This document shows positions 1,358 to 27,261 of a DNA stretch of 27,261 bases, piece by piece. Under the pieces are notes generated by a model that ran no database searches, was not told where the DNA came from, and saw only the letters and a list, made by a program, of their open reading frames with translations. The first letter of the stretch is position 1. The number at the start of each line of letters is the position of its first letter. The stretch is from the NCBI GenBank assembly GCA_036172245.1, contig JAYWIR010000074.1, forward strand, positions 372,001 through 399,261. Direction: 5' to 3'. A program made the position numbers and the translations under genes. This DNA comes from Raillietiella orientalis (taxonomy: Eukaryota).

Positions 1358-1374
1358 GCATCGCCGAATCCCTT
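1358..1374 (-). other. 17-bp target-site remnant between E1 and E2 (antisense of K-G-F-G-D-A codons)
   Basis: GCATCGCCGAATCCCTT; the reverse complement reads AAG GGA TTC GGC GAT GC. Same register as the flanks at 6718 and 21611. Confidence 0.7.
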
Positions 1375-1468
1375 GGCGAGTGGACGTGTGTTTCCTTCGC
1401 TCCCGAGTGAGTCGACAGGAAGCGGTTTTTTTCTATTGTTGTTTTGTGTGGAACATCGTTGGTGTCCG

Positions 1469-6200: not shown

Positions 6201-6515
6201 CGACCCCTCTGGGAACGGTTCGGGGCGACCCTAGTGCTCCCTACGGGCAGCACCCCCAGAGACGTTCTTCGGCCCCTCTTCGTGAAGGACGCACTGAAGC
6301 CAGCCGCAGCCATCGCAGCCTTGTGCTGCGTCCGTGGCATCGTGGGGGCATGGAGCGACGCCAACAACGAAGGAGTGGGTCCACAGGCGAGGGACGTCAT
6401 CCCGTATGCGAAACGCTTCTTGCAAAGAGCTGCCGGATGGCCACAACTGGGGAATATGCAGGCTGACCTCGAGGGCTTCGTTCGACGGATGGGCCCTCCC
6501 CACAGCGACCAGTGA
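3219..6515 (+). CDS. E2 ORF2: APE endonuclease (C-terminal half deleted), reverse transcriptase and CCHC-like domain
   Basis: CWNVNGL, LLQEIH, NVYAP; KAPGEDG, WRPIT, DLHKAFD, GIRQGGSLSP, YADD, YLG. The frame is open from ATA at 3219, upstream of the ORF-track start at 3357. Confidence 0.93.
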   Translation: MTPGLASHRRIRAACWNVNGLRDDGNRRDTADTLRELDLALLQEIHVITAADAQEIETIAGGRLYWRCCLRNTCGVAFFVKPAIDAAVKGVRFDDDGRVGQLILSWSDSIELIVTNVYAPSGKQGYSDRTRLLDSMMPDWLAGDWTRLSGAKEYLREYLRGVTLRNLQDWDLFKESVREFCEQFPLDRLPPGFGEGACNHRAYLQARRYERTPNVRRLAEYRAGAERQAWQSGSARLLDDQGRECSSPASVRHLVRSFYSSLYAREPPDRNASRRLLPDGTPAIGEEEMESLDEPFTTGEILAGIKRLKKRKAPGEDGLPAEFFQSFAEELAPLLLKLIRLIRDEGDVPASFRSARVRLLPKGGDLRDLKNWRPITIVNTDAKLIAGLWASRLGQVAESVICPEQTYAVPGRSMDANLFFASTWVHMQRREKKGIGKVGNPTLGPPAGLGRDPRAGKGALALAVDLHKAFDCVDQELLLELLGRMGFPPSLISYLRSCWRNAIITVYFSGQKVYGVPVRRGIRQGGSLSPLLFSTYFELVLRAHRVTLAPLPSSCPGTPAVAAYADDLLLLLPMSTPAKAVGDFFDLLSRGTGLQVNRVKSSVVPIGAAWAGQQDWVRLGIPTARCFKYLGVPLGDYSPAEAWSSCLQKVETAIGPFLEGEFHLPERAAVWNASAAPILRPLLFVCPPTVESKKRKKDLLRIALWGKGRPRVPLKDLCALRRDGGLGLLTLERVEKQLRWRTLAIAAKMWSTPWCTPARLLASRVSRCDGLASFLLSRGRKMRRCGLLLGRMATLAKENSWMVCCPANSPAWLEENIGTWAVVNQRSHDTWNRLRCSFYARCTLRNLLESPARCTWAETTCLATALPFLRRALHSTRTPRWQVSCCIEGREKLISGWTTGELADASTPSVQPRGLLRWGELLAILRDELKWPPVMKESRILPLKWQDSALLLLHWGLPCNARFFHWTRGDVDPACARCGERESLPQLIVDCAALRPLWERFGATLVLPTGSTPRDVLRPLFVKDALKPAAAIAALCCVRGIVGAWSDANNEGVGPQARDVIPYAKRFLQRAAGWPQLGNMQADLEGFVRRMGPPHSDQ

Positions 6516-6717
6516 TCCCTTCCCTGCCCTCCAACTTCTTTTTGTTTGTTTCTTTTTTATTTTACTTTTTGTCTCATCCCCATCCCCCTTCGCTGTCGGG
6601 GAGTGCCACGCCGGGCTGCGTCCCGGTGTCCCGACAGGTCCTGTGTTTACGGCCGTGGTAAGGCCTTGTACCACGCATGTAAAGTTTATTAATACACGCC
6701 CGGGGCGTACCCGGGTG

Positions 6718-7616
6718 ACAACGCCGAAACCTGGAGGGAGACGGTTCAGGGGAAACTGGTCGCAGAACTCGCGGACTGAGCTCTTCAAGTCGTCCCAGTC
6801 CGCGAGCGACTGCAGATGGAAGCCTTGCAGGAACGAGCGAAAATGTTGCGCTGCTCCTGCGAGGCGCAACCAGTCCCCTGGCAAACGCCACGCTGTGGAG
6901 GGTGGACCTCTACCGCGCGGGTGTATTTCTAGCACGAGCCGGGGATGGTCGGAAAGTTCGGATAGCACTGCCCCTCGATTTCCCACCCGCGAACACAGGT
7001 GGTTGTCGAGGAACATGTGGTCGATCCTCGTTTCCGTCCCGGCGTCACCGGCCAACAAGTTGCGCGCGTGCATGGCAGCGCACATCTCGTTGACCAGCTG
7101 TGCGCGAATGTCGGGCGCACCTGCCAGCAGGCGGACGTTAAAGTCTTCGGCAATGAGGTGCGCCTTTCGCATGTCTGCTTCGGCCAGCCAATCTCGCCGC
7201 AGGCCTTCGAAGAACGCAGTGCGTTCCCCGCGCCTGTGGCTCGTGCCGGGCGCGTACACGTTGGTCACGACGAGGACGATCGCGTCGGACCACTTGGCAA
7301 CAAGCTGCCCGATTTGACCTTCCCCGTCGAAGTGCACGTCGCGCAGCGCATTAACGACGGCTGGCTTCAGCATGAAAGCCACACCGCGGGTGCGGTCTCT
7401 CCCGGTTTGGTATACGAGCCGCCCGCCTGCGATCCGTTCGATTTCCTGGGCCTCCCCTGCGTGGAGCACGTGCGTCTCCTGCAGAAGCGCCAGGTCGAAG
7501 TCCCGCAGGCTGGCGGCCACTTCTCTCCTCTTGCCGTCGTCGCGCAACCCGTTGACGTTCCAACAGATTACGCGCAGTCGCCGGCAGGAGGAGAGTCCAC
7601 GTGTTGGTGTGTTTAT
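6718..7616 (-). pseudogene. E3 ORF2 APE endonuclease domain, truncated
   Basis: ORF 6231..7547 up to PPGFGVV. The remainder of that ORF is antisense read-through into E2. Confidence 0.88.
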
Positions 7617-9021
7617 TGTGCTTGCTTACCGTCCTCCGCCTGCTGTTCAGCAGGCGGGAGTTGTGTATCCATTGCGACGGGCTGTTGCTCGCAAGGAGGC
7701 GGTCCGTCGGTGGTTGTGGTGGTGGTTGGAGGATCCTGCTTGGCCAGGGACGTCTCCGGCAAGGAGTCGCGAGACCTCGCGGACATCGCCTCCCCGTCGT
7801 CGTGGTCCGACCGCATTTCCTCCTCCGCCGGTGGAGGTGCGGAGCGCCGCGGGTTGCCTACCTTGCGGCCCGCTTTGCGCTTCGGGAGAGCGACAGCCGG
7901 AGCCTTGCCGGCTTCGGCTTCGGACTCGGAAGTCTCCGGTCCTTTCGCCTCAGCCGGACGCCTCAAGGCCTTTTTCTGGGCCTTGGGAGGCTGCTGGAGC
8001 ATGGCTGCCAACTCTTCCGCCGCCTTGTTGAAGTCCCGGTCGTCGCTGCTCACGCTGGGCTCGCGACTTTCTCGCGGCGTCGGCGTTCGCGCGTCGGCGG
8101 CTTGAACAGCTGGCGTGACGTCACATCGCATCGATCCGTCAGCGGAGCGAGTATCGATCGCCGGCACGCGTTTGATGGCCACGCTGCACGCTTTGATTGT
8201 TGGGCGTGGCGCGACCTTCCCCTTGCCCTTCACCACTTTCGCCGGTGCGGGCGCGGTTTTTTTAACGATTTTTACTTTACGGGTGACCAGCTGCCAGCCT
8301 TTCTCGTCGGCAGTCTTTTCTGGGAGCTCCTGTACCGAGTCCCTTTCCTGCTGCGCGACTTTTGTCGGAGCCGACGGCTGATCCCCTTTTGTGGGGTTTA
8401 TTACTATTTTTGCCTTCCCTTCCTTCTTTTGCGGAAGTTCCGGCGTTGAAACGACGTTCATGGGGCACACCACTTTGGTGTGGCCCTTCGCGCCGCACGT
8501 TGGGCAAACCGCGTCCGGGCACCGCTTTTTCAAATGCCCGAACTACTTGCAGTTTCCACAAAATTTAGGTTTCCCCACAAACCAAATGTCGACGAACTCG
8601 TCGCCAATTTGGAGCTTGTGGGGAAGCTGTACGCTTTCTCGAAGCGTCACGCGCGCGCCTACTCGCCCACTAAATGCACCGTTCACTCCGAAGGTGTTGG
8701 GCTTTCTCCACATCGCGAAAACGCTTGCGTATTTTTCCAGTTCAACGCGGATGGCGTTCTCATCCATCCGCACTGTTGTCCCTGTTAGGTGGACCACATT
8801 GGTGTGGTCCACCGTGTGTGGGAGTAAATTCCTGCCCTCAAATTGTACGGGCGTGCAGAGCATCTTGTGGGTAAGAGCTGCATCCTTGCAGATGAGCTCC
8901 GCCATCTGCCCTCCGCTCCGTATAGAGAGGCAAAGAATTTCATGGTCGGCAATGCCCATCTTTTTGATGGCATTGCCGAACTTTCGCGCCCTTAACGAAG
9001 AATATAAATTTCCTACCTTGT
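7613..9021 (-). pseudogene. E3 ORF1 (5'-truncated, disrupted near 8540)
   Basis: ORFs 8543..9268 (3' part) and 7613..8533 together give ORF1 with zinc knuckles. Confidence 0.85.
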
Positions 9022-10700
9022 CTTCTCCTTGGCCAATGTTGCCATGCGCCCGAGCAGTAGGCCGCATCTTCGCATCTTCCGGCCACGGCTCAGAAGAAAA
9101 CACGCGAGTCCATCGCACAAGGACACACGGCTGACCAGGAGGCAGGACGTAGTGCACCAAGGGGTGCTCCACATCTTCGCTGCGATGGCGAGGGTTCGCC
9201 ACCGCAGCTGGATTTCCACGCGCTCCAGCGTCAGGAGGCCAAGACCGCCGTCTCGACGCGGAGCGCACAAGTCCTTCAGTGGGACTCGGAGCCTACCCTT
9301 GCCACAAAGGGCGATACGGAGGAGGTCCTTCGTCCTCTTCTTGAATTCCACGGTGGGAAGGCAAACAAAAAGCAAGGGGCGGAGGATGGAGGCCGCGAAG
9401 GCGTTCCAAACTGCGGCTCGTTCCGGCAAGTGAAACTTTTTTTCAAGGAACGGGCCGATCGCCGTCTCGACTCTTTGGAGGCAGCTGGATAACGCTTCCG
9501 CAGGGGAGTAGTCCCAGAACGGTACACCAAGGTACTTGAAGCACCTCGCCGTGGGGATTCCCAGACGGATCCTTTCCTGCTGCCCTGCCTACGCCGCACC
9601 TATTGGCACAACCGACGACTTCGCCCTGTTAACCTGCAGTCCTGTCCCGCGGCTGAGCAGATCGAAGAAATCTCCGACCGCCTTTGCCGGGGTGGACGTT
9701 GGCAACAAGAGCAGGAGATCGTCTGCGTACGCTGCAAGGGCGGGCGTGCCGGGGCACGAGCTCGGCAATGGGGCCAGAGTCACCTTGTACGCTTTCAGCA
9801 TCAACACAAAGTAGGTGCTGAAGAGCAGGGGACTGAGGCTATCTCCCCGCCTTATGCCCCGCCGCACCGGCACGCCATGCGCCTTGTGACCGCTGAAAGA
9901 TACGGTAATTATCGCATTCCGCCAGCAAGAGCGCAGGTAGGAAATCAGGGGGGAGAAAAGCCCATGCGACCCAGGAGCTCCAAGAGGAGTTCCTGGTCTA
10001 CACAGTCGAACGCCTTGTGGAGATCGACGGCGAGCGCTAGGGCCCCCTATCCCGCCCGGGGGTCCCTTCCCAGCCCAGCTGGCGGCCCCAATGTGGGGTT
10101 GCCGACTTTCCCTATCCCTTTCTTTTCTCTTCTCTGCAGGTGCACCCATGTGCTTGCGAAGAAGAGGTTGCAATTAATACTTCGCCCGGGAACAGCATAA
10201 GTCTGCTCCGGGCTAATTACGGATTCTACCACCTGTTCCAGACGCGAAGCCCATTGCCCTGCTATCAACTTGGGGTCCGTATTCACGATCGTTATCGGAC
10301 GCCAGTTCTTTAAATCCCTGAGGTCTCCCCCTTTCGGGAGGAGCCTCACTCTGGCTGACCGAAACGAGGCGGGAACATCGCCTTCCTCTCGGATCAGCCT
10401 GATCAACTTAAGCAGCAGGGCTGCCAGCTCTTCCGCGAAGCTCTGAAAGAACTCCGCGGGCAAGCCGTCTTCTCCTGGAGCTTTACGTCTCTTGAGCTTT
10501 TGATACCGGCGAGAATTTCGCCGGTGGTAAAAGGCTCGTCGAGGCTTTCCATCTCCTCCTCCCCTATTGCCGGGGCGCCATCCGGAAGCAAGCGCCGAGA
10601 AGCGCCTCGATCCGGAGGCTCCCTGGCGTAAAGGGAGGAATAAAAACTCCGCACGAGATGCCGTACCAACGCCGGGGACGAACATTTCTCGCCCTGGTCG
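9022..10700 (-). mobile_element. E4: internal family-A ORF2/RT fragment with frameshifts, highly similar to E2 about 3935-5614 in inverted orientation
   Basis: DQGEKCSSP...KAPGEDG...WRPIT...YADD...LAKE, with the same RT insert (RREKKGIGKVGNPTLGPPAGLGRDPRAG) as E2. Confidence 0.93.
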
Positions 10701-10748
10701 CGACAGCCGGAGCGTTGCCGGAGGGCTCCGGCTGTCGCTCTCCCGAAG
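10700..10748. repeat. Junction filler with a perfect 14-bp inverted repeat, matching E3 ORF1 sequence
   Basis: GCGACAGCCGGAGC(10700-10713)/GCTCCGGCTGTCGC(10725-10738). Matches about 7880-7911 in both orientations. Confidence 0.85.
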
Positions 10749-13472
10749 TTGCGTCCGCCGTGCACCGCGCAGTCAAGCGGTACTACTCGTCCTTGTACGC
10801 GGAAAAGCCCACGGAACGCAGTCTCTCCGATCTGCTTCTTACAACGGGCAACCCTGCTATCGACGAGGAGGAACGCGCCAGATTGGATTGGCGCTTCACG
10901 GCGGAAGAAGTATCATCTGCCATAGCGGGCCTGAAGATGCGTAAGGCGCCTGGGGAGGATGACCTGCCCGCGGAGTACTTTCAGTGCTTCGCGGCGGAGC
11001 TCGTCCCCTTGGTGCTAAGCCTTTCCTCGCTGATACGTGAGACGGGAGATGTTCCTGCTTCTTTCCGCTCAGCAAAGGTGCGGCTCCTGCCGGAAGGCGG
11101 TGATTTGCGCCACCTCCGCAACTGGCGTCCGATCACCTTGGTGAATTTGGAAGTCAAGTTGTTCTCCAGGGTATGGGTCGCGCGCCTAGGGAGAATCGCA
11201 GAGTCCTTGGTAAGTCCGGAGCAAACGTATGCTGTTCCGGGTTGTTCCATGGACGCGAATCTCTTCTTCGCGCGAACATGGTTCGAGCTGCAGCAGCGCG
11301 TGGCGCAGCAGAGCCAGGCAGCCGAAATCGCCGCAGTCAAAGGTGAGCGGCGGTGTTCAAGGCACGATCGATCGCCGGGAGCCTTAGCGGTCGCCGTCGA
11401 TCTCTGCGAAGCGTTCGACAGCGTAAACCAGGACCTCCTTCTGGAGCTTCTGGGACGCCTAGGCCTCCCGACGCATCTCATCGCCTACTTGCGCTCCTGC
11501 TGGCGATACGCGTTACGCTGTATCTCTTTCAGCGGGCGCCACGTATACGGCATTCTTATACGGCGGGGTATCAGGCAGGTAGACAGCTTAAGCCCCCTGC
11601 TCTTCAGCACCTCCTTTGAGTTGATGCTGAGGGCGTACAGGCTAACGCTGGCTACCCTGCCGAGCTCCTGCCCGGGAACCCCGGCCGTGGCCGCCTATGC
11701 TGACGACCTTCTCCTGCTGCTGCCCACGTCCACCCCGGCATCCAGGCTAGAGGACTTCTTCGAGCTAATTCGTCGGGGAGCGGGCCTGAGCGTCAACAGG
11801 ACGAAATCAACCGTTGTACCGATTGGCTCTACGTGGAAGGGGCAGTCCGACTGGATCCGCCTGGGGATTCCCACGGCCAGGTGCTTGAAGTACCTTGGCG
11901 TTCCCTTGTGCGCCTTCTGTCCAGCAGAAGCGTGGTCGGACTGCCTTCACAAGGACGAGACTGCTCTGGGCCCGTTCCAGGGCGGCAGGTTTCTCCTGTT
12001 GGAACGGGCCTTCGTGTGGAACATTTTCGTTTCCCCCCTCCTCCGTCCCCTCTTTTTTGTTTGTCCCCCTCCCTACTCGGCTAAGCGCCGGGCGCAACGC
12101 CTGTTGCGTAACGCCCTGTGGGGACCGGCGAGGTCCAGGATACACCTGAAGAACTTGGCGGCTCCTCGGCGTGAAGCAGGCTTGGGCATCTTGACGCTGG
12201 AGCGGATCGGACTGCTAGTGCAGTTCCGCATGCTGGCACTTTGTGCGCAGCTCTGCACTGCTCGCTGGTGTGCTCCAGCGCGGCTGCTGCTGCGGCACTG
12301 CACGGGTGGCGACGGTCTACGTTCGTTGCATCTGCGCACGGAGCGCGCCCAGAGAGGATTCGGCTTCCCTTTGAAGCAGCTCGCCACGCTTCTGGGAAAG
12401 CATGAGTGGATCTCCTGCCGGCCCACGAACTTCAACGCCTGAAGGCCGGAAGCCTTATCGTGCTAAGCAGCGCAGCAGGATGTGTCCCGTTTGGAACTCC
12501 GTTGCGTGAAACTTTCCCCATACTCTCCAGTGGGGGAGGTGCTGGAAGACCAGGATCAGTGGACACGCCTAGCCGCTACGCCAATCGCCAAAGCACTGTG
12601 TGCACTGATGGTGCGAGATGACAGTGATCTGCCGGCGAGGTGGGAGATCACTTGCGAAATCGCAAGCGAAACCCGACTGCTGGGTGCCTGGCGGACTTGC
12701 AAAGTGGCAGACGCTGCCACACCTTGCATTCTTGCAAAGCGGCTTCTCCAGTGGAGTGAGCTCCTCGGGGTGCCCAGCGATGAACTTGTGGTCCCTTCTG
12801 CGTGTTTGGACGCGACTCTCTTCCCCCTTCGCTGGATACAGGACGCTTTTCTGCTGATGCATTGAGGTTTGTACTGCAACTAGCAGGCGCACCTGATTTC
12901 CGGAAGAGTTGCTTCCCCGAACTGTGCCCAATGCGGAACGGTGGAATCGCTTACGCATTTGCTGCTTGAGTGCGGTGCCCTCCAGGATCTGTGGCGGCGG
13001 CTGTCTTTAGCGCTCCTGCACCCCGGACACACCGCACTGGATTGGATGCGCCGCTTCTACACGCGTGTCGGACTTTCTGTTGGAGCGGTCGTCGCAATCA
13101 TCTGCTGCGTCTGCGCCATTGTCAGGGCCCACCACGTATTGCAGATGCGAGCAGTTCCAACATCGGTCCCCGACACCGCAGCATGCAACCTGTAAATGGC
13201 TGCCGGGTGGCCACATCTTGGAGCAGAAGTGAGGATGGAGATCGTCGGCATTCACCGCCGGTTCTGAGAAGAGGAACGGTTAGACTGTATACCCCTGTGT
13301 CCGCCCTCCCAACCAATTTATTTATTCATTGTCCCACCTCCTCCCGTTCCAAACTCTCAGTGTGCTTGGACTGCGTTCCGAGAAATCCACTCCCCATTTT
13401 CTGTTCCCCTTGCCTGGGAACACAGTTCCCAGTTGATGTTATAATAAACGTCCCGGCGCAACCGGGTAATAA
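10749..13472 (+). mobile_element. E5: 5'-truncated family-B element (RT, CCHC, 3' UTR), with stop codons in the C-terminal part
   Basis: ORF 10658..12442 (WRPIT, DLCEAFD, YADD, YLG), then CAQCGTVESLTHLLLEC and IHRRF* at about 13267. Terminal AATAAA-CGT-CCCGG-CGCAA-CCGGG-TAATAA at 13443-13472. Confidence 0.93.
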
Positions 13473-14680
13473 ACGACAACGCTGCATTCTTTAATTGGCT
13501 CGCTTGCCTGCTGTTTTTTCTGGCGGTATGCGAGCTTTTTCTCCATCCTCCTCTCCTTCTTTGATTTTTTGGCCGTAGCCACCTGGCACCCAGGCTCCTG
13601 GCTTGTTCCCTCCACTTAATCGGCGTTGTTCGCCGGGGTCTCGGGTGAGGCCTGGGTCTTGGGCGCGGGTGGCACAGCAATTGCGGCAGCTTTTGCCGCC
13701 AGCCTTTTCTGCAGAAGCCGGGCGCGTTTTTTAAGGTTTCTCTTGGAAACCACCAGCAGTGCCTCTTTTGAGCACACCTTCCTCGTGTGACCCATTGTGC
13801 CGCATACTTGGCACTGCTCGTTGGGACTCCTCTTTTTGAGGTGGCCCGACGTATTGCAGAAGCCACAGTATTTCGGCTTCCCCACATACCAGAGGTCGAC
13901 GGTTTCGCCTCCGACCTTCAGTTTGTGGGGAAGAGTGCAGCCCTCCCGAAAGGTCACGCGCGCAGACGTAAGGCCGTGTTTGAGCCCCGTGTAGTCCTCG
14001 AAGGGACTAATTTTCGTCCACTGCGCGTGGATCATTTCATATTCTTCCAACACGGCGCGAACCTGTTCCTTGCGCATCCGCGCGTTAACACCCAACAGGT
14101 GGACCACCAAGCTGCGGTCCTCCGTAATAGGGAAGAGCCAGCGCGTCCCCATCACCACGGAAGTTTTAAGCAGTCGTTCCGCCAGCTCTGCTTGTTTGCA
14201 GATGACCTCAACGTACTGACCCCCGCTGCGGATGGTCATAGCGCTGAGATCCTCCTCTTTCACGCTCTTTCACATCGAGAGCGCGCATGCCCTTCGAGAA
14301 GGTGCGCGCGCTCTCTAAAGAATATAAATTGCCTACGTTGTAGAACAATGAGGGGTTGTAACGCTCCTCTACTTAGGCCGACAATTCCGCTGCGGCTGCA
14401 GGCGATGGCGACGAGACAACGGCGCTCCACGCCCGCGCTGCAGCGGGGACAGATTCTGTGGGGGCACATGCCCCCACCTCCATCGCCCCGGGGGGTGACG
14501 TTGCCGCCGCCTCCTAGCTCTCCATCGCCTCTGAAGGCGGCGTTTCCGCTGCCCTTTGGCCATCCCTGGTAATCGCGTCAGGCATCGCTGCCTGATCGAC
14601 CACCGAACCACACGACGCTTGCACTGGGGGAGACTTCCTGGCACGAGGAACACCGAGAAAACACGTCAACCCTGGAGCAC
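13473..14680 (-). mobile_element. E6: family-C element, intact 5' end and frameshifted ORF1; cut at the ORF1 IKECSVV motif by E5
   Basis: 5' end GTGCTCCAGGG, ATG at 14585, CGFCNTSGH and CQVCGTMGHTRKVC. Closely similar to E8 about 19240-20353. Confidence 0.92.
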
Positions 14681-16731
14681 GCAAGGCGTTCGATTGCGTA
14701 AATCAGGATCTCCTGCTGAAGCTCCTAAAACGTCTCTGTCTAACGGTGCACTTCGTAACGTATTTGCGCGCTTGCTGGCGCCACTGGCTCATTTCCATCT
14801 TTTTAACGGCTAACACGTGTACGGCGTGCCGGTGCGGCGGGGCATTAGGCAGGGCAACTGCTTAAGCCCGTTGCTCTTCAGCATCTTCTTTGAGATGGTG
14901 CTGTGGGCGTACAGGATGACGCTGGCCAACCTGCCCAGCCTTTCTCCAGGAACGCCGTCCGTGTCGGCCTATGCTGACGACCTGCATTTCCTCGTACCCA
15001 TGAGCACCCTGGCGTCCAGTCTCGAGGATTTCTTCTAGCTGATTCGCCGGAGAGCGAGCACGAGCGCAAACCGGAGGAAGAGCGTGGTCGTACCTATTAA
15101 TGCGGCGTGGTAGGGGCAGTCCGACTGGATCCGCCTGGGGATCCCTACCGCTCCGTCCACCCAATATCTGGGCGTTCCGCTGGGAAACATCAGCCCAGTG
15201 GAAGTGTGGTCGGACTGCCTTCGGAAGGCTACGAGTGCGCTGAGCCCGTTCCAGCATGGCAAGTTCCTCCTGTCGGAGCAAGTCGCGATATGGAACACCT
15301 TCGTTGCCCCCCTCTTGCGCCCCCTGTTTTTGGTTTGCCCGCCCCCCTACTCGGTAAAGCTCCAGTTGCACAGCCTATTGAATAACGCTCCGTGGGGACC
15401 TTCGAGGTCCAGCATACGCCTCAAACACTTGGAGGCGCCGCGTAGGGATGCTGGTTTGGGCATCCTGACGCTGGACAGAATCGAGCTGCAGGTGCAGCTT
15501 TGAATGTTGGCCATGTGCGCCAACCTTTGGTCCACTCCGTGGTGCGCTCCCGCGCGACCGCTTCTGCGGCGCTGCATAAGCAGCGATGGACTTCTGTCGC
15601 TGCAGCCGCACACGGAGCACCCCACGACAAGTTTCGGTTTACCCTTGAAACCCCTCTACCTGCTCCTGGCAGCCCAGGAATGGATCTCCTGCCGCCCAAC
15701 GAACTTTCAAGCTTGGCGGCAGGAACCGTTGTATGGCTGGGCAAAGCAGCATGATGTTTTCCTCCTGGAACTTCGTTGCGCTAACCTGTCCCCGTATTGC
15801 ACGTTGGACGAGGTGTGCAACAGCCAGGAGAAGTGGGCCCGCCTGGCCGTCAGGCCGCTCGCCGACGCACTGTCAGCCCTCAGGGCAAGAGATGATAGCC
15901 TCGATCCGACGACATGGGAGGTCGCCTGCACCATTGCAGGAGCAACACGACCTATCAGCGTTTGGAGGATTTGCGAGCTGTCAGACGCCGCCACGCCTCG
16001 CCTCATCTAGAAGGGACTCCTTCCGTAGACCGAACACTTCAGTGTGCCCCCCGAAGAACTTGTAGTCCCTTTCTCCTGTTTGAGCACTTCGGTGTTCCCC
16101 CTTTTGTGGAGGCAGGTCGTCATCATGCTGGTGCATTGGGGTTTTCACTGCAACCAGCGGACGAACCGTGTTTCCGAAGGAGTTGTCTCCCCAAACTGTA
16201 AGCGGTGCGGGAAAGTGGAAACTCTCCCGCACCTGCTCCTGGACTGCGGTGCCCTTCCAGCACTCTGGCGGAGGCTGGTCTGAGGTCTCCTGCACCAGGA
16301 AGACACCGCGAGGGACTTGATACGCCGCTTCTTTAAGCCAGGCAGCCTTTCTTTGGGTGCTGTCGTTGCAACTGTGTGTTGCCCCCGCGCCATCAACAAG
16401 GCCCACCGAGAGTTGAAGAAGCTGGCCATCCTTCGTCAGTCCACCAGATTAGCCAGCAGAAACATGTCGTCGGCTGCCGAATGGGCCCATCTGCTACAGG
16501 GCGTTAGGAGAGAGATCGACGGCATCCATCGCCTGTCCCCCGCCTTTCATATTTTTCTTTTATTTTTTTATAGTAGTGTATTTCTGGTCCCTTTCCTCCC
16601 GTTCCGGACTTTCGGCATACCGACCTACGTGTCGGGGTTACAACCTTCTTCCTCTCTTGTTTTCCCCTTTGTCCAGGAACCCTGTTCCCCGATAGTTTAC
16701 AATAAACGCCCTGGCGCAACTGGGTGATAAA
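14681..16731 (+). mobile_element. E7: degenerate family-B ORF2 3' half starting at RT motif KAFDCV, with intact 3' terminus
   Basis: KAFDCVNQDLLL, YGVPVRRGIRQG, AYADD, CKRCGKVETLPHLLLDC; many stops. Terminal AATAAA-CGC-CCTGG-CGCAA-CTGGG-TGATAAA at 16701-16731. Confidence 0.92.
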
Positions 16732-18583
16732 CAGCCGACACTACGCCATCGTGCACGTTCTGCCCGCTGCAAGTAATGTTGATGAGCGCGTCGCGCCAGC
16801 AGGAGCGCAGATAAACCACTGATAAGGCCGAGAAGCGCAAGCGTCCCAAAAGCTCCAGAAGGAGATTCTGGTCGACGCAATCGAATGGTTTCCGCAAGTC
16901 GATTGCGACCGCAAGGGCTCCCTCCCCCACCCGACCATCCAAACCATTGCCGGCGCACGCACCGAAATTCCGGCTGCGCACCAAGCTCCTTTCTTTTTGG
17001 AGCTCTAACCTGGTAGAAGTGTGGAACAGGTTAACCTCCATATTTCTCCCGGGAACAGCATATGCATCTTCCGGGCTGATGAAGATGTTTGCAACCCTTC
17101 CCAACCACTCTGCCGAAACCTTAGCTGTTAGCTTGGCGTCCGCATTCACTATTGTGATGGGACGACAGTTGTTCATGCTCCTCAGGTCTCCTCCCTTAGA
17201 GAGGAACCGCACCTTTGCCGAACGAAAGGAAGCGGGAACGTCACCTCTCTCGCGTATCAGCATGGTGTGTTGATGTACCAGGGATTAAGCTCAGCCGCGA
17301 AAGTTTGGTAAAACACCGCGGGCAGGCTGTCCTCATCTGGAGCCTTGCGCCTTTTGAGCTTTTCGATGGCCGAGAGGATCTCGTCCATCGTGGAAGCCTC
17401 GTCAAGGGTCTTTCTCTTCTCCTCTTTAATCGCTGGAGCGCCCTCCGGAAGCAAGAGTCGTAAAACGTTCCTCTCTAGAGGTGCCCTGGCATACATTAAG
17501 GAGTAGTAACTCCGCAGTAGGCCGCGGATTTGGGCGGTTGCTGAATGCTCCTGGCCCTGATCGTCCAGCACGCTGGCAGATCCGGACTGACAGGCTTGCT
17601 TCTCGGCTCCCGCTTTGTATTTTGTTAGCCTGCGGATGTCGAGGTTTCAGGCGTAACGACGGGCCTGCAGGTAGGCTCGTTCGTTACGGACCCCGGTCCC
17701 AAAACCCGTAGGTAGGCGGTGCAGAGGGAACTGGTCGCAGAACTCCTGGACCGACCGCTAGAAGCGGTCCCAATCCTGGAGTTTCCGCATCCTGAAGCTC
17801 CGTATGAACGTGCGGAGATGTTTCGCCGCGTCCGGGAGCTTTAGCCAGTCCTTTGGGAGATGCCACGCTAACAAGGGGCGCCCCTGTCGCGCGGATGGAT
17901 CTTGAGGACTAGCGGGCGACGGTCGGACAGCTCGCACGGTAGCTGGCCGCGCCTGACCACGCGAGGGCACAAGTGCTCGTCAAGACACACGTGGTCACTG
18001 CTGTCTTCCATCCCCGGTGCACTGGCCAACCATTTACAGGTGTGCAACGCCATGCACACCTCGTTGACCAGGTCACGCTTTGGATACTGCTTATCTGGTT
18101 TTAGGCGAACGTTGAAATTGCCTGCAACCAGATGGCCATTCCGCATTCCTGCTTCGGTCAGCCAGTCTCGCCGGATGGCAAGGAAAACTTTTTCCGCGCC
18201 CTCCTGGTAATCAGGTCCGCGCCGCTCGGTGTGTACACGTTCGTGACGATAAGATCGATCGTGTCAAACCACCTGAGAGTCAGCTGGCTGCCACGACCGT
18301 GATCGTCGAACCGCAAGCCTCGAGCCACGGCCTCGACGGCTGGTCGAAGCAGGTAGGCGACACCGCAACTACTCGATGTCCCACACCGATGCCACAGCCG
18401 CCCTCCATAGATGCGTTCGATCTCTTGTGCTTGTTCTGCAGAGATCACATGGATCTCCAGCAGCAGCGCAAGGTCGTAGGACTCCAGAAGGGCGGCCATG
18501 TCTTGTCTCCTGTCGGCGTCTGTCATGCCGTTCACGTGCCAAACGGCAATGCCCAGACGACGGCAGGAGTAGATTCCCGGCAT
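16732..18583 (-). pseudogene. E8 ORF2 APE plus RT N-terminal half, fragmented
   Basis: Pieces 18158..18583, 17868..18146, 17684..17866, 17257..17571 and 16697..17263. Confidence 0.85.
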
Positions 18584-20258
18584 TACTGCTGGAAAGATTG
18601 AGGTGTGGAAGAGGCCTCCTCCTGCGATGCGGGCGTGATGTCCATGAAGGTTTCGGCCTTCTCAGTCAACTGATGCACCTGATCGGCCTCCACCTCCTCC
18701 ATCCCCTCCATGTCCGCGCGTGGGAGTCTCTCGGGGGAAGGGTGCCGCAAGTTTCGCACGCTCATGGCACACTCGGTTGCGAAAGCCATCTCTTCCCCCT
18801 CGCCAAGGGACACGAGCTTCCTCGGCTTTGTCGACTCAAGTACAGCCTTCTTGCGGGGTGCCGTGGAAACAAAGGCTGCGCTTCCGGCCTCCACCTCGGA
18901 GTCAGAAGAGTGGGACTCCTGAGGGGAGGCCGGGCGCCTTACGGCCTTCTTGCCATCCTTGGAGAGTTCGGGCTGAAACCAGGCAGCAAGTTCCTCCGCG
19001 GCTCGCGCGAAGGCTACGTCATCGATGGTGGTGTCGATGACGGTCGCCGCCGCCGCCTCGCTCCCCTCGCTGTTGACAGAGTCAACAGAGGGGTTGTCGT
19101 CGGTAGCGGCGAGTTCTTCCTGGCAGCGTTCGGCAACATCGAGAACGGGTTTGACGACTACGCTGCACTCTTCAATTATCGCGCTACCCTGTTCTTTCTT
19201 CTTCTGTTGGTAGGCGATTTTTTTTCCCATCCTTCTTTCCTTCTTTGATTTTTTGGCTGTTGTCACTTGCCAACACTTTTTTGGCCGGCTCCCTCAACTT
19301 TTTGGGCGTTGCTCGCCGGGGTCTCGGGTGACGCCTGGGTCTTGGGCGCGGGTGGCACAGCCATTGCGGCAGCTTTCGCCGCCAGCCTTTTTTGCAGAAG
19401 CCGGGCGCGTTTTTTAAGGTTTCTCTTGGAAACCACCAGCAGTGCCTCTTTTGAGCACACCTTCCTCGTGTGACCCATTGTGCCGCATACTTGGCACTGC
19501 TCGTTGGGACACCTCTTTTCGAGGTTGCCCGACGTATTGCAGAAGCCACAGTATTGCGGCTTCCCCACATTCCAGAGGTAAACGGTTTCGCCTTCGACCA
19601 CGAGTATGTGGGAAAGAGTGCAGCCCTCGCGAGCGGTCACGCGCGCAGCCGTGAAGCCGTGTTGCAGCCATGTGTAGTCCTCGAAGGGACTAACTTTTGT
19701 TCACTGCGCGTGGACCATTTCGTATTCTTCCAACGCGGCACGAACCTGTTTCTTGCGCATCCGCGCGGTAACACCTAACAGGTGGACCACCATACTGCGG
19801 TCCGCCGTAATAGGGAAGAGCCAGCGCGTCCCCATCACCACGGAAGTTTTAAGCAGTCGTTGGGCCAGCTCTGCTTGTTTGCAGATGACCTCAACGTACT
19901 GACCCCCGCTGCGGATGGTCATAGCGCTGAGCTCCTCCTCTTTCAGATCGAGAGCGCGCACGCCCTTTGAGAAGGCGCGCGCGCTCTCTCATGTATATAG
20001 ATTGTCTACCTTGTAGAAAAATGAGGGGTTGTACCCCTCCTCTACATGTGCCTACAATTCCGCCGCGGCTGCAGGCGATGGCGCCGACACAGCGGAACTC
20101 CACGCCCGCGCTGCAGCAAGCTTTGCTTCTGTGGGGGCGGACGCTTCCACCCCTATCACTTCTGGGGGCGACGTTGCCGCCGCCCCCTGGCTCTCCATCG
20201 CCTCTAAGGGCGGCTTTGCCGCTGCCCCTTGGTCATCCATGGTGGTCGCGTTAGGCAT
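18583..20258 (-). pseudogene. E8 ORF1 (several frameshifts and stops)
   Basis: Pieces 20052..20408, 19701..19961, 19263..19640 and 18583..19266 are collinear with other ORF1s. Confidence 0.85.
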
Positions 20259-20353
20259 CGCTGCCTGATCGACCACCGAACCACACGACGCTTGCACTGG
20301 GAGAGACTCCCTGGCACGAGGAGCAACGAGAAAACAAGGCCTCCCTGGAGCAC

Positions 20354-21610
20354 AGAAGGGGTTCGACTGCGTGGAGAAGGAGCTACTGTAGGAGCTTCTG
20401 GGTCTCATGGGCTTCCCACCCTCTCTTTCCTCCTACCTCCGTACTTGCTGGCGGAATGCGTTGATCAAGGTCTCTTTCAGCGGACAACGTACGGCCTGCC
20501 GGTGCCGCGGGGCATACGGCAGGGCGATAGTCTGATTCCCCTGCTCTTCAGCACCTACCTTGAGATGGTGCTGAGAGCGTACAGGGTGTCTTTGGCTGGC
20601 TTGCCTAGCTCGTGCCCAGGCACGCCCGAAGTAGCTGCGTACGCCGACGATCTTCTGCTGATGTTGCCCCTGTTCGCCCCGGCAGTCGCAGTCGAGAATT
20701 TCTTCGATCTGCTAAGCCGTGGGACTGGGTTGCAGGTTAACAAGGAGAAGTCGTCGGTGGTACCGTTCGTTGCGACGTGGGATGGACGCCCTGACTGCAT
20801 CCGCATAAGAATCTCCACAGTCAGGTACCTGAAGTACCTAAGTGTCCCGTTGGGAAATTCTGCCTCGCAGAAGTCTGTTAAGGTCGCCTCCAAAAGGTAG
20901 AGATTGCATTATCAATCGGATCCAGGCTTCTCCCGCTTAAGAGGCAAGAGTGGGCACTGCTGCTGTTGCACAGGGGTTTACACTCCAACGCGCGCCGCTT
21001 CCTCTGTACGCGAGGAAGTGTAAGCTTTGAGTGTGCCAAGTGTGGGGAGCAAGAATCGCTTTCATATTTTCTAGTCGACTGTGCTGCCATCCGACCCCTG
21101 TGGTTACGGTTCGGGACGAACCTAGGGCTCGCAATGGGCAGCGCGCCCAGACACGTTCTTCGGCCCCTCTTCGTGCGGGACGCTCTGCCGTTTGCCGCAG
21201 CCTTCGCAGCTCTCTGCTGCATCCGGGGCATCGTGGCGGCCTGGAGCGACATTTGCGACGAAGGAGTGGATGCCAACGAGAGGGAAGTCATCCCGTATGC
21301 TGTGAGCTTCATGCGAAGAGCTGCAAGATGGCTCCATCTGGGACAAACGCAGAAGGACCTAGAGGGCATACTGCGAAGGATGGGCCCTCCTCCTAGTGGA
21401 TAGTGATCCCTTCTCCTCCCTCCAAACTCCTTTAGTTTTTCTTTATTTTATTTTTTTTTGTTTCCTCCCAAAGTCCCATCCACTGCCGAGGAGCGTGATG
21501 CCGAGCTCCGTCCCGGCGTCCCGGCATGTCCGGTATTGTGCGGCCGTTATTGAGGCCTCGTACTACGTATTTGTGGAGTTTATTAATAAAAGCCCAAGCT
21601 TACCCGGGTG
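20354..21610 (+). mobile_element. E9: degenerate family-A-like ORF2 3' part starting at RT motif KGFDCV, with an internal deletion near 20915 and an intact 3' UTR
   Basis: KGFDCVEKELL*ELLGLMGFPP, GIRQGD, YADD, CAKCGEQES, RRMGPPPSG*. The UTR is homologous to E1/E2 and ends CCGGGTG at 21610. Confidence 0.9.
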
Positions 21611-21709
21611 GAAACACCAAATCCCCGGTTCAGGCGGTGCACAGGGACCTCCTCGGAGAACTCGCGGACCGAGGCCTTCATGCGGTCCCAGTCTTGGAGA
21701 CTGCAGAGC
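21611..21709 (-). mobile_element. E10: 99-bp ORF2 remnant (post-APE region), host of both E9 and E11
   Basis: Reverse complement translates LCSLQDWDRMKASVREFSEEVPVHRLNRGFGV, homologous to E2 LRNLQDWDLFKESVREFCEQFPLDRLPPGFGE. Not in the ORF track. Confidence 0.88.
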
Positions 21710-22800
21710 GGCGAGCGGACGTGTCTTTTCGTTGCTCCTGAGTTTCATTTCCTTTGGTGCTTGTGCGTGGTGTGGGTGGAGGATTAGGCAGAAATGCCTA
21801 ATTCCACCACCGGTGAGGATCCGGGGGCGATGACCTCATTGCCCCCGGAGCAGATGGAGGTAAGGGCTCCCGCATCAGTGGAGGCTCCCGCCAGCACGGA
21901 TGCGCCCCCGGCCCTACCCAGGGCTTGGAACGCCGTGGCTGCGGCACCTACGCCAGCGGCTATGGCGGAAATGCGCGCTTACCTGGAGGAGAGGTATAAC
22001 CCACCCCTTCTATATAAGGTAGGTGGTCTATATAAGGTCTGCTGCGTCGTTGTAGAGCGGATTCCCGCCATCGACGAATGCGGCGCTAAAGAACTCCCTG
22101 CTGCCCCTGCTCAACCCTCCGTTGACAAAGTCAACAAGGAGGGGAGCGAGGCGGCGGCGTCCGTCATCGAGCCCACGCTCGATGACGTCGCCTTCGAGCG
22201 CGCCGCGGAGGAGCTGGCTGCCTCGCTGCAGCCGGTTGCCCCCAAGGCTGGCAAGAAGGCCGTCAGGCGTCCGGCTTCCCCTCAGGAGTCGGCCACTTCC
22301 GACCCCAAGGTGAAGGCCGGAAACACAGCATTCATCTTCGCGGCCCCCCGCAAAAAGGCAGGACGAAGGTCCACAATGCCCCGGAAGATCGTCTCCCCCG
22401 ACGAAGAGGAAGAGATGGCTTCCGGTAGCGAGGGTGCCATGAGCGTGGGAAACTCCCTGGACCCGTCGCCCGAGAGAATTCCACGCTCGGACACGCAGGG
22501 GATGGTGAGGATGGAGGCCGAACAGGTACCCCAGCGCCTGAAGAGGCCTCCGTCCTCGTTCCGATGGTCCTCGTACCGATGGACCTTTCCAACACCTGCC
22601 CCGGGGCAGGTGCCGCGACGCCACTTTCCCAGCCATAATGCCGGGAATCGCCTCTCGCCGTCGTCTTCTGATCGCCTGTTGGAACGTGAACGGGCTAAGC
22701 GACGAAGGCAAGAGGCGTGACGTGGCCGCCACCCTGGCATCCTTCGACCTGGTGCTGCTGCAGGAGATCCACGTGATCTCCGCAGATCAAGCCCGGGAGA
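21710..22800 (+). mobile_element. E11: element with intact 5' end, internally deleted ORF1 (21794-22638) and the start of APE (22638-22800); cut by E12
   Basis: 5' end GGCGAGCGGACGTGT; MPNSTT..., AAEELAA; TAATG at 22636-22640; MPGIASRRRLLIACWNVNGL...LLQEIHVISADQAREI. Confidence 0.9.
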
Positions 22801-25800
22801 TTTCTCACCCGGTCACGCCGGGGCGTTTATTCCATATAACATAACCAAAAAAAGCAATTATACAAAATAAACCAGTTGGGAACCAAACTCCCAACCGACG
22901 ACTGAACAAGAATGAAGAGAATATTGCTGGCACGCAGGCCAGAGTAACAGTTTCCTGAACGGTGTGGGTGGGCGGGAAAAACAATGACACCAAAATAAAA
23001 TAAAAACAATGAATAAGGAGGACGGGATAAGGGTCTTTGGGATCGCTCTGGAAGACACGCGGATAAAAGCATGGGCACCGGAAATTTTACCGAGCGAACA
23101 AGACGAAGTATGAGTGGGCGAGAGGTCGCAGGGGTCACCGGATGAAGCCGTTCTCAAAGGTGTGTAAACCGGCGATGTATGCCGGAGATGTCCTCATTCA
23201 CATTGTCACGAAGATGAGACCACCTTGAAGCCATCTCCATCAATTGAGCTGCAAGCAGGTGAGCCTCCCTTCGCTGCGATGACAACTCCAGGGCGTATCG
23301 GGCCTTCACGATGGCGCGAACGGAACACATGGTTGCGACGATCGCGCCAACCGAAAGTCCATTTTTGCTGAAGAAGCGCCGCAGCACATCAATGGCAGTG
23401 CCTCCTTGTGGCATGATGGCGAAAGTGAGCCTTCGCCACAGTTCCCGGAGGTCACCGCAGTCCAGCAAAAGGTGCGGAAAAGACTCGATCTCTCCGCACC
23501 TTAAACAGTTTAGCAAAGCAGCTCCCCCGGAAACGATGCTTCGGTGCCTATTACAGTGAAATGCACAATGTAAAAAGAGCAGCACATCTTGTTTCCACTT
23601 AAGGGGGAACACGGAGCTGTCCAAACAAACGGGGGGAACCACTATCTCTCCGGGGGGCACACTTAAATGTTCGCTCCACCGAAGCAGTCCCTTCGCCCGA
23701 TTCCGAGGTGTGGCGGCTTGCACCAGCTCATTTGTCGTCCAGCTGCCGAGGAGCTTACTGACTCCCTCTATTTTGCAGGAGAGCTCCCATTCCGCCGGTA
23801 GGCAACCGTCGTTGCTTGTCCTGAGGGCAGACAGCGCTGCGGCGAGTGGTGTGGCGGCCAGACGATCCGACAACTTCTTGTCCTGCAAGTCTTCGTCCAT
23901 ATGATGACTGAGGAGAAGTCGCAGGCGTCGAAGATCTTCCAGGCGCGTTCCTTCGGAAGCTGCCCACGATGAAAAAGATTCCTGCCGCCATGCATTAATG
24001 TTCATGGGGCGGCAGGAGATCCAGCTTTGAACTTCCAGCAGTGAGGACAGCTGCCTCAGCGGGAAGCCAAACCCTATTCTGGTGTGCCGATAGTGCGGTA
24101 GCAAAGAAAGCAGTCCCTCGCTTCCCGTGCAGTGCCTCAGTATAAAGCGTGCGGGTAAGCACCACGGCGTACACCACAGCTTGGCACAGAGCCGCAGCAT
24201 GCGAAACTGCACCTGCAGTTCGATACTGTTTAAGTCGAGGATGCCCAAGCCTGCATCCTGACGCGGCGCCACCAAGTCTATAAGTGTAACACGGGATCTT
24301 GCAGCGTCCCACAACGCTTTGCGTAGAAGGCGCTGCGCCCAGACTTTGACTTCCTGTGGAAGTGGAAAAACAAAAAACAGGGGGTGGAAGAGGGGGGCAG
24401 CGAAGGTGTTCCAGATGCAGGCCCGTTCCCGCAAGACGAACTCGCCTCCTGAAAACGGGCCAAGTGCACGCTCTGCCTTCCGAATTCAGTCCGACCACGC
24501 TTCTGAGATGCACAAGTCGCCCAACGGCTCGCGAAAGTACCTGAGGTACCTGCCCGAGGGGATCCCCAGATCGATCCATTCGGACTGCCCCTCCCACGTC
24601 GCACCCACCGGAACAACCATACACTTACTCCTGTTAACGCTCACGCCCGCACCGCGACGAATCAACTCAAAGAAGTCTTCAAGCGATGTCGCCGGGGTGG
24701 ACATGGGCAACAGGAGAAGCAGGTCGTCGGCATAGGCTGCCACGGCCGGCGTACCTGGACAGGAGCTCGACAGGTTCGCTAGCGTCAGCCTGTAAGCCTC
24801 CAGCACCAATACAAAATAGGTGCTGAAGAGCAGTGGGCTCAAGCTGTCACCCTGCCTAATTCCTCGTCGTACCGGCACGCCGTACACGCGACAGCCACTG
24901 AAAACAAAGGATGTAATCGCGTGGCGCCAGCAGGAGCGCAAGTACGCCAACAGGGATGCCGGAAGACACAGACGTTCCAAAAGCTCAAGAAGAAGCTTTT
25001 GGTTCACGCAATCGAAAGCTTTGTGCAGATCGACTGCAACCGCCAAGGCTCCCGGTGTCTCCCTTTGCGTCCCGCGCCTCCGTCGGTGAGAGATCGAAGG
25101 AGTCGCTTCCGCACGACGATCCACCGCCACACAATGCTGCAATTGCAGCCATTTGCGGATGAACAAGAGGTTCGCGTCCATGGACCGCCCAGGAAAAGCG
25201 TACGTCTGCTCCGGACTTACCAAGGATTCCGCGATCCTACCCATCCGCGCCACCCAAAGTTTCGAGAACAACTTGAAGTCCGCATTCACTAATGTGATCG
25301 GACGCCAGTTGTTCAGTTGGCGCAAATCTCCGCCTTTCGGCAGTAGACGCACCTTCGCTCAGCGAAACGAGGCGGGGACCTCGCCCGAGTCTCGCATCAG
25401 CGACGAGAGTTGGAGCACCAGGGGGATGAGCTCCGCCGCAAAACACTGAAAGAATTCCGCGGGGAGCCCATCTTCGCCTGGCGCTTTTCGTCTCTTGAGC
25501 CCCGAGATGGCCGAGGAAATTTCCTCTGCCGTGAAGGGCTCATCAAGACGCGCGCGTTCCTTTTCGTATACAACAGGTGCATCAATCGGCAGAAGCAGCC
25601 GGGAAAGGCTGCGTTTCGTCGGTGCCTCTGCATACAGAGAAGAGTAATAGCGCCTGACTATCCGTCGCACGTCGGCTGGAGCCGAGCATTTCCTATCCTG
25701 GTCGTCGAGCAGAACTGTCGCCCTTGACTGCCAGACCTGGCGCTCGGCCTTGGCCTTGTACTCCGATAATCGACCAACGTCCGCGCGCCTGGTAAAGGAG

Positions 25801-27261
25801 CGGGCCTGCAGAAAATCTCTGCTGTTGGCTACGCCCTCTCCGAAGCCGCGCGGAAGCTGGTGCAAGGGAAACCGGCAGCAGAGTTCGCGGACCGATCTTT
25901 TCAGATCGTCCCAGTCCTCGAGCCCACTTATGGCAAAGCCGAGGAGGTACTGGCGAAGATGCTCAGACGCCTCCGTATGGCTTAGCCAGTCTCCCGGCAT
26001 CCTCCAAAAACAGTTTGGAGGCCCCTTGCCTGGCGGGAGCATCTCGAACTCGAGCCTGTTGTGGTTTGAAAGCACAGACGGCACGGGACCTCTCCGACCC
26101 ACTCGAGAGAGCAAGTGTTCATGAAGGTATACGTGATCCGGCGTTGCTGTTATAACAGGGTCGCTAGCGAACAAGTTGCACGCGTGCACGGACGCGCACA
26201 TCTCTTCCGCTAGCAACTTTTCCCTTTTCTGGGATCTATTCTCGGAAAGCAGGTGGACGTTAAAGTCCCCCGCAATGAGATGGGCCACAGTAGGGTGAGA
26301 TCGAGTGAGCCACTGGCTTTGAAGGGTACCGAAGAACTCAATCCTTTCGGCCCATCGTCCAGCACCGCTCGGCGCGTACACGTTGGTTGCGACAAGGTCG
26401 ATCGAGTCGGACCACTTGAGTACAAGCTGTCCCACTCGGCTTTCCGTGTCGAAACGAGCGCTGCGCACTGCTCCCGCCAAGGTTCCTCGCACGAGGAAAG
26501 CGACGCCGCACGTACGTGCAACGCCGCACCTATAAAGTAGCGTTCCGCCCGCGCGCCGTTCGATTTCGGCAGCCTGCTCTCCGGAAATGCTGTGAATCTC
26601 CTGCAGGAGCGTCAAGTCGAAGGCGCGCAGAGCGTCAGCCACTAGTCGCCTCTTCTCCTCGTGTTGGAGCCCGTTTACGTTCCAAGACGTTACGGCAACA
26701 CGACGAGAAGACGCGATTGCCCTCATCACGGCTGGGAAAGCGAGGCCGTGGTGCTCGCCTCACCCGGCGAGCGGACAGTAAGCAGCACACGGGCTGGAGG
26801 GCGCGGTCGCCACCGGCCTCAACTGTGCTGCACGTAATCGGGTGCTCCTCCCCGGGTGCAGAACCTGTGGGTTCCGGGGTGAGCACTCGCCGTTCCGCCG
26901 TGCATCTGTCCGATTGCACGGGAATGGTCTTTTCGGCGGTCACAGAAGCGCACTTGCACGCGTTGAAGGCGCTGGCTTTTTCCTTGGAAGTGTCACAAGC
27001 CGCGCGTGTTTTCGTATTCCCGCGACTGCTTTTTCTTTTGGAAGAGCTTAGGGATGGAGGTTGAGGAGCTTTATTTGGAGATTTTTCTTTCCTCCTCTCC
27101 ACAACCTTCCATTCGCCTTCGCGATTTCCGGAGGCTTCCGCGACAGTAGTTGCTGAAACCTACGGTATTTTCGCTGCGTTCTGTGGGGGTGTTGCTTTCG
27201 CTACGCCTTTCAAAGGCGGCAACGGAGTCATCTTCTTGACAGTCGGCAGATCGCTCCGCTC
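22801..27261 (-). mobile_element. E12: family-B element with ORF1 3' part, complete but disrupted ORF2 and 3' UTR; runs off the right edge
   Basis: ORFs 25359..26729 (APE, GDFN), 24486..25352 (RT, YADD) and 23154..24434 (CLRCGEIESFPHLLLDC). Terminal AATAAA-CGC-CCCGG-CGTGA-CCGGG-TGAGAAA at 22831-22801. Confidence 0.94.
23154..26726 (-). pseudogene. E12 ORF2 (APE-RT-CCHC), with a stop at about 25360 and a disruption at about 24486
   Basis: Three consecutive ORFs cover the whole ORF2 with all domains in order. Confidence 0.9.

Follow-up and report, generated by a model that had tools for sequence, protein, structure and literature searches.

We analysed a 27,261-nt stretch of DNA from Raillietiella orientalis (assembly GCA_036172245.1, contig JAYWIR010000074.1, positions 372,001 to 399,261, forward strand; hereafter the window), which consisted throughout of long interspersed nuclear element (LINE) sequence: twelve LINE fragments, with LINE set against LINE at every junction. 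At two of these junctions the 5′ end of one LINE family, termed family C, lay antisense at the same place in the reverse transcriptase (RT) gene of another LINE, at H|KAFD of RT motif A, and the two hosts belonged to different lineages (2/2 family C 5′ ends, n = 2, all in one window). We consider this observation real and, with modest confidence, well explained as site-specific homing of LINEs into other LINEs, on the basis of two family C and three family A events in this single window.

The window was cut into pieces by tblastn with the two proteins of element E2 (open reading frames ORF1 and ORF2) as rulers, giving the strand order E1+, E2+, E3−, E4−, E5+, E6−, E7+, E8−, E9+, E10′−, E11+, E12−. 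The reference element and the pieces that meet at the two junctions, with amino acid (aa) positions referring to E2, were as follows.

1373–6721, plus strand: E2, family A reference and the sole intact, full-length element; a CCHC knuckle in ORF1, an apurinic/apyrimidinic endonuclease (APE) and an RT in ORF2
13473–14680, minus strand: E6, family C copy 1 (tblastn and alignments); natural 5′ end (14680), 5′ untranslated region (5′UTR) and ORF1 to ~aa 410
14681–14682, no strand: filler 'gc' of 2 nt at junction 1
14683–16732, plus strand: E7, host 1; RT half with K484 (KAFDCVNQ...) at its start and the 3′ hairpin tail ...GGGTGATAAAC at its end; E5/E12 side of the RT tree
16733–20353, minus strand: E8, family C copy 2; natural 5′ end (20353), 5′UTR, ORF1, APE and RT to ~aa 536
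20354–20355, no strand: filler 'ag' of 2 nt at junction 2
20356–21614, plus strand: E9, host 2; family-A-like RT half from K484 (KGFDCVEKELL*), 3′ tail ...GGGTGGAAA

The 1114-aa ORF2 product of E2 matched the Pfam families RVT_1 (E = 7.4e-22) and Exo_endo_phos (E = 8.8e-6). In tblastn, E8 matched aa 6–530 of this protein; its APE piece gave a weak Exo_endo_phos match (E = 4.6e-4, 20.4 bits, below the Pfam cut-off of 24.5). The ORF1 of E6 was broken at ~aa 410 by the 3′ end of E5, and the RT of E8 at ~aa 536 by the 3′ end of E7. An internal deletion near 20858–20921 had removed aa ~653–953 of ORF2 from E9.

Both junctions had the same composition, namely CCCTGGAGCAC, two filler bases and AAGG(C/G)GTTCGA, at 14670–14693 and 20343–20366. 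The exact copies of CCCTGGAGCAC occupied 14670–14680 and 20343–20353, and the filler was followed by AAGGCGTTCGATTGCGTA at junction 1 and by AAGGGGTTCGACTGCGTG at junction 2. An initial annotation, made from the sequence alone, had reported these junction strings and their coordinates, and they were borne out to the base. The guests E6 and E8 both represented the minus-strand 5′UTR and ORF1 of one family (tblastn) and were identical at 1053 of 1197 positions (88.0%) in a pairwise alignment from 13473 to the junction, whereas the hosts E7 and E9 to the right of it agreed at only 311 of 516 (60.3%). The close similarity of the guests and the dissimilarity of the hosts, as annotated, were thus both confirmed. 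A block of 46 nt in the family C 5′UTR was invariant. Identity fell exactly at the junction, from 92/100 in the last 100 nt before it to 54/100 in the first 100 nt after it. No inverted repeats were found at the two family C junctions, both of which were clean apart from the 2-nt filler.

Aligned with E2 and E11, two other full-length elements, the family C 5′ ends lay within ~3 nt of the respective termini, and they were therefore taken to be natural, full-length 5′ ends. On the host side, AVDLH|KAFDCV stood at the corresponding position in the three uninterrupted RTs (4620 on the plus strand, 10016 and 25022 on the minus strand), and by this alignment the first codon of either host is K484 in the ORF2 of the reference. 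By our own arithmetic, the probability that two random insertions into an element of ~5.4 kb share their orientation and lie within ±2 nt of each other is about 5/(2 × 5360) = 5e-4.

Six RT copies cover aa 484–652, and in their maximum-likelihood tree E9 grouped with E2 and E4, and E7 with E5 and E12, with a support of 100 for the split and with unbroken RTs on both sides of it. Since E7 and E9 belonged to different lineages, each with unbroken RTs, they are not diverged duplicates of one truncated host, and the two junctions therefore arose separately. A simple duplicated junction, which the initial annotation had already judged a poor explanation, was excluded by this tree, and the family-A-like character ascribed to E9 was upheld by its place beside E2 and E4. 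Twin priming from a single RNA was likewise rejected: in their 155-nt overlap the arms E8 and E9 were identical at 91 positions (59%), no closer than between unrelated lineages.

Independent evidence for insertion at a fixed nucleotide came from family A. The 3′ ends of E1, E2 and E9 (3/3 in the window) adjoined the identical nucleotide of an antisense GGATTCGGCG site, which encodes PGFG at ORF2 aa ~210, with junctions at 1354–1386, 6714–6745 and 21607–21640. Their tails were followed by CGCCGAA(T/A)CC or its decayed form CACCAAATCC, the antisense of GGATTCGGCG, so that in the sense of the target all three broke after the same G, following GG(A/T)TT(C/T)GG(C/T)G. The E2 insertion was additionally flanked by a target-site duplication, the copies of which agreed at 9 of 10 positions (one mismatch):

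1362–1371, plus strand: left target-site duplication of E2, CGCCGAATCC, 10 nt, directly after the E1 3′ tail
6722–6731, plus strand: right target-site duplication of E2, CGCCGAAACC, 10 nt, also the start of E3

This recurrence, together with the duplication, shows that antisense insertion into other LINEs at a fixed nucleotide does happen in this cluster. Both E1 and E2 used one site, which accounts for their arrangement as a head-to-tail pair. Because the 3′ end of E9 lay at the canonical family A site in E10′, its parent element (H9) was an ordinary family A insertion that preceded the arrival of family C, and the sequence now to the left of its K484 therefore came later. Site-specific insertion of family C gains weight from the fact that a second lineage struck another fixed nucleotide three times. 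Unoccupied target sites of both kinds were present inside E2, GGATTCGGCG at 3792–3801 and CAC|AAGGCGTTCGAC at 4617–4631.

As a separate observation, the 3′ end of E7 entered E8 (16722–16750) at the antisense of GVPVRR (aa ~536). The homologous target in family A would read ...CCC^CGCCGCACC, resembling the family A site ...CCT^CGCCGAATCC; this single case hints, at the level of sequence, that the endonuclease preferences of E7 and family A are related.

Taken together, we regard it as probable, if not strongly so, that the two junctions reflect LINEs that home in antisense to specific sequences of other LINEs, in a manner resembling Tx1, R1 or Zepp. Family C would be a sequence-specific, APE-type, L1-like LINE that integrates by target-primed reverse transcription and enters motif A of the RT gene of other LINEs in antisense, at ...GTCGATCTCCAC|AAGGCGTTCGA.... 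E8 would have entered a family A element, leaving E9; later, E6 would have entered an element of a different lineage that had landed inside E8, leaving E7. Family A would behave in the same way on the antisense strand at GGATTCGGCG^ (PGFG, ORF2 aa ~210), with its 10-nt target-site duplication. We infer, for family C, recognition of the site by its endonuclease or ribonucleoprotein, the position of the first-strand nick, a duplication, and left halves of the interrupted hosts. If the family C duplication were 10 nt long, as in family A, the first nick would lie ~10 nt inside KAFD.

Under this model the window would represent the right-hand half of a Russian-doll nest, built in the order E10 ← H9 ← E8 ← H7 ← E6 ← H5 ← E4 ← E3 ← E1/E2, with a side branch E10 ← E11 ← E12, in which H5, H7 and H9 denote the unbroken elements that left E5, E7 and E9. 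One plain history of target-primed insertions, each into the element that had arrived before it, fits all of the junctions. Ten of the eleven insertions inferred from the tblastn layout were, by our own count, antisense to their host, the only sense insertion being that of E3 into E4. All five plus-strand elements of the main chain kept their 3′ ends, the minus-strand members kept only 5′ parts, and only the innermost element, E2, was complete. Stop codons followed a rough trend, from none in the innermost E1 and E2 to 0.3–1.1 per 100 aa in the outer elements. The model makes predictions for sequence beyond the window: the left halves should be found upstream, with the left part of H7 ending in ...GATCTCCAC; family C 3′ ends should run into the upstream half of the RT in antisense (GTGGAGATCGAC...), optionally with a short duplication resembling CGAACGCCTT; and full-length family C 5′ ends should, in family C orientation, be preceded by ...TCGAACGCCTT.

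A number of points weigh against the homing model. The window held only two family C junctions, both of them 5′, and no family C 3′ end, target-site duplication or filled/empty pair was visible in it; the left halves predicted by the nest fall outside it. E8 ended at aa ~536 and E9 started at aa 484, a geometry that would also suit an inversion-type event. The damage gradient was not monotonic, with 1.03 stops per 100 aa in E6 and 0.50 in E8, and the observed-to-expected CpG ratio was flat across the elements and carried no age signal. E4 met E5 at aa ~250–260 and not at aa ~210, for which a deletion of the target must be assumed. The ratio of nonsynonymous to synonymous substitution rates between E6 and E8 was 0.55 (p = 0.04), with 0.50 in a wrong-frame control, and was uninformative as to independent descent. 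Site-specific insertion by family C, as proposed in the initial annotation, stood in part: it is the most economical reading of the junctions, drawn from n = 2 copies neither of which keeps its 3′ end.

An unlikely alternative is a compound insertion of the inversion type, in which twin priming would have involved two RNAs, that of the host family on the bottom strand and that of family C on the top strand, with the complementary DNAs (cDNAs) joined 3′ end to 3′ end, so that family C would be inverted up to its 5′ end and the host would begin at K484. The head-to-head geometry fits this, and in the second unit the inverted arm ends at aa ~536 and the direct arm starts at aa 484, near one another as in classical twin priming. 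The last 3–4 nt of the family C end (CAC or GCAC) also agree with the His codon standing before KAFD in intact RTs, but two filler nucleotides stand between CAC and AAG, so this microhomology was not used. End-joining does occur in the window, as the messy, apparently templated filler at the E4|E5 junction testifies. However, the arms do not derive from one RNA (59% identity of E8 and E9 in their overlap), nothing in such a scheme would fix the same codon in two host lineages, and the same rare event would be needed twice, each time with a full-length family C cDNA.

Similarly improbable, in our estimation, is that a single ancestral junction between family C and a family A host was segmentally duplicated, and that in copy 1 a later insertion of the E7 lineage recombined or was end-joined with the first ~11 nt of the old host, the rest of which was deleted; the second host would then be secondary. 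It is true that junction 1 is followed by 11 nt (AAGGCGTTCGA) identical to family A (E2) and differing at 2 nt from each of E5 and E12, the relatives of E7, and that bases diagnostic of the E7 lineage begin only at nt 12; a consensus site in the struck host is, however, also predicted by site-specific insertion. The 3′ end of E7 lies inside E8, the other family C copy, where it would be expected after an insertion-mediated deletion between tandem duplicates, but the crossover would have to fall in the last 11 nt of the available homology. Between E7 and family A there are 8 exactly matching blocks of at least 10 nt, among which the KAFD block is only joint fourth, and a 23-nt block at 14823 would have met the growing cDNA first. 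An identity of ~60–65% is moreover poor for homologous recombination, and the recurrent family A site shows fixed-site insertion to be real in the window.

Very improbable is a duplicated junction followed by unequal divergence, or by gene conversion that homogenised the family C parts alone: conversion tracts from other family C copies would naturally stop at the junction, where family C homology ends, but long tracts extending to the very last base would be needed in both copies, and the RT tree, in which the E7 and E9 lineages each have intact full RTs, contradicts it.

Returning to the homing model, the struck site itself was described in the initial annotation as carrying a catalytic Asp of RT. 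This was imprecise: RT motif A is indeed split, but the catalytic codon itself is not struck, as the metal-binding Asp, by correspondence with D110 in motif A of HIV-1 RT and with motif A of TERT, is presumably not the D of KAFD but that of 'VDLH', which lies three codons before the break on its upstream side. The further suggestion that a victim cannot readily mutate the target away was overstated, since RTs within the window already differed at the site: E5 read CEAFD (TGCGAAGCGTTCGAC), E12 carried AAAGCTTTCGAT, and family C itself read RKPFD (CGGAAACCATTCGAT). In the family C motif A, visible in E8 at about 16891 (minus strand, 16880–16900), AIDLRKPFDCV replaced AVDLHKAFDCV, with 4 differences from the 11-base site apparently targeted by family C; from its sequence, this variant may act as a shield conferring self-immunity on family C. 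The struck hosts E7 and E9 carried AAGGCGTTCGA or a form with one mismatch, while the uninterrupted E5, E12 and E8 differed from this site at 2–4 of 11 bases. E2 and E4 had perfect sites and were unstruck, but these are the youngest elements.

The remaining elements of the nest were as follows.

6732–9019, minus strand: E3, from ORF1 aa ~116 to ORF2 aa ~210, where E1/E2 interrupt it at the family A site
9020–10700, minus strand: E4, a family A fragment with 93.6% identity to E2, ORF2 ~aa 816 to 256, facing E5 head-to-head
10714–13472, plus strand: E5, 5′-truncated, ORF2 ~aa 250–260 to the 3′ tail ...GGGTAATAA, antisense in E6 ORF1
21615–21710, minus strand: E10′, remnant of the oldest host, antisense ORF2 ~aa 210 to 182
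21711–22800, plus strand: E11, natural 5′ end, antisense in E10, interrupted by the E12 3′ end at ORF2 aa ~73
22801–27261, minus strand: E12, near-complete ORF2 of a fourth lineage, 3′ hairpin tail at 22801–22831, KAFD site uninterrupted at 25022

The first 10 nt of E10′ were CACCAAATCC, the decayed family A target site, and an internal deletion in E11 at 22033–22040 had removed ORF1 aa ~122–397. The head-to-head junction of E4 and E5 contained a perfect 14-nt inverted repeat (10700–10713 / 10725–10738), and 10717–10748 matched, at 31 of 33 positions, the reverse complement of the C-terminal region of E3 ORF1 (7880–7912), in elements otherwise ~65–70% alike. The junction sequence may represent templated filler or sequence transfer; a fold-back palindrome was rejected, since the arms were only 67–69% alike.

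Each visible 3′ end in the window (six) shared AATAAACG, a CCCGG-N5-CCGGG hairpin and T(G/A)RNA(A/T), and a poly(A) tail was found in none:

1326–1362, 6685–6721, 13437–13473, 16695–16732 and 21579–21614, plus strand, and 22801–22837, minus strand: 3′ ends of six elements, with the shared AATAAACG and a 5–6-bp GC hairpin

The same 3′ end was common to all lineages, though their overall likeness was only 60–75%, and this sequence conservation suggests a 'stringent' 3′-end recognition common to the LINE guild. Across the visible ends the hairpin was conserved, and no compensatory pairs were seen. The GC content of the window was 55–65%; no other gene or RNA family was detected in it, the Rfam search returning no family, and a tandem-repeat search of the window gave nothing notable.

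A protein database search with ORF2 gave 6 matches at E ≤ 1e-10, of which one was close, a metagenome protein with 67% identity, the next having ~28%. This relative (619 aa, compared with 3927–5760) starts at ORF2 aa 253, within a few codons of the truncations of E4 (aa ~256) and E5 (aa ~250–260); its start could be a contig edge or a further recurrent breakpoint. Searches of genome-contig and viral-contig collections with the ORF2 protein and the conserved 3′-hairpin pattern gave no match, and a metagenome scan with a 22-mer of the perfectly conserved family C 5′UTR block returned one locus (L001), which was otherwise unlike the window and constitutes a chance match.

A broader interpretation, which we put forward tentatively as possible rather than probable, is that the window samples a guild of diverged LINE lineages, each homing antisense to its own conserved codon block in other LINEs (RT motif A or PGFG). 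Such lineages would be hyperparasites, 'LINEs of LINEs', with a target kept intact by selection on the enzymes of their victims, and would of themselves build onion-like LINE nests, possibly of the centromere type, that leave host genes unharmed. If homing of this kind held true genome-wide, it would provide a nucleotide-level mechanism for the growth of LINE nests of the Zepp type, candidates for centromere DNA in some algae, each lineage recognising a short stretch of conserved coding sequence in other copies. One transposon would then clearly be parasitising another through the active-site motif of an enzyme, which predicts an arms race readable in the motif codons, such as RKPFD in the attacker and CEAFD in an unstruck lineage. 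It would also be a source of new sequence-specific APE endonucleases with defined targets of 10–20 nt.

Known examples of site-specific LINEs are Tx1L, which inserts into Tx1D, and R1, which inserts into 28S ribosomal DNA. Target-specific APE-type LINEs of the Tx1 and R1 clades occupy a fixed sequence of a multicopy target, transposons being among the targets named in the part of the source consulted (PMC4640811). The window resembles these systems, as that part describes them, in holding LINEs with APE and RT at one fixed sequence of a multicopy target (PMC4640811), and further in its precise junctions, short duplication (10 nt in family A), structured 3′ end and lack of poly(A). It differs in that the target here is coding sequence of LINEs of the same guild, entered in antisense, at RT motif A or at the PGFG codons after the APE domain. 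This comparison is one of behaviour, namely that APE and RT are encoded and that independent copies lie at the same nucleotide in the same orientation.

Zepp-like LINE clusters are described, in the passages compared, as growing by nested insertion aimed at existing copies, and Zepp in Coccomyxa as GC-rich (61%; PMC8226300, PMC3446292). With Zepp and ZeppL, L1-like LINEs of green-algal centromeric clusters (Coccomyxa, Chlorella, Chlamydomonas), the window shares, going by those passages, a nested and GC-rich LINE cluster. Zepp arrays, as portrayed there, consist mostly of tandem 3′ ends with 5′ truncation, whereas the present nest is mainly antisense, combines several lineages diverged to ~60–75% and commonly retains full-length 5′ ends. 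The likeness is one of nested-cluster behaviour; the passages compared give no nucleotide-level Zepp target. The 5′ inversions produced by L1 twin priming likewise place an inverted 5′ segment head-to-head with a direct 3′ segment; here, in contrast, the arms are of different families (59% in the overlap) and the breakpoint recurs in two host lineages. Our literature search found no LINE aimed at the RT motif of another LINE, the original descriptions of Zepp junctions, possibly relevant, lying outside that search. Compared with these systems, what would be new here is the use of conserved coding motifs of fellow LINEs as an antisense target, by several lineages with different sites, and its resolution at the nucleotide level.

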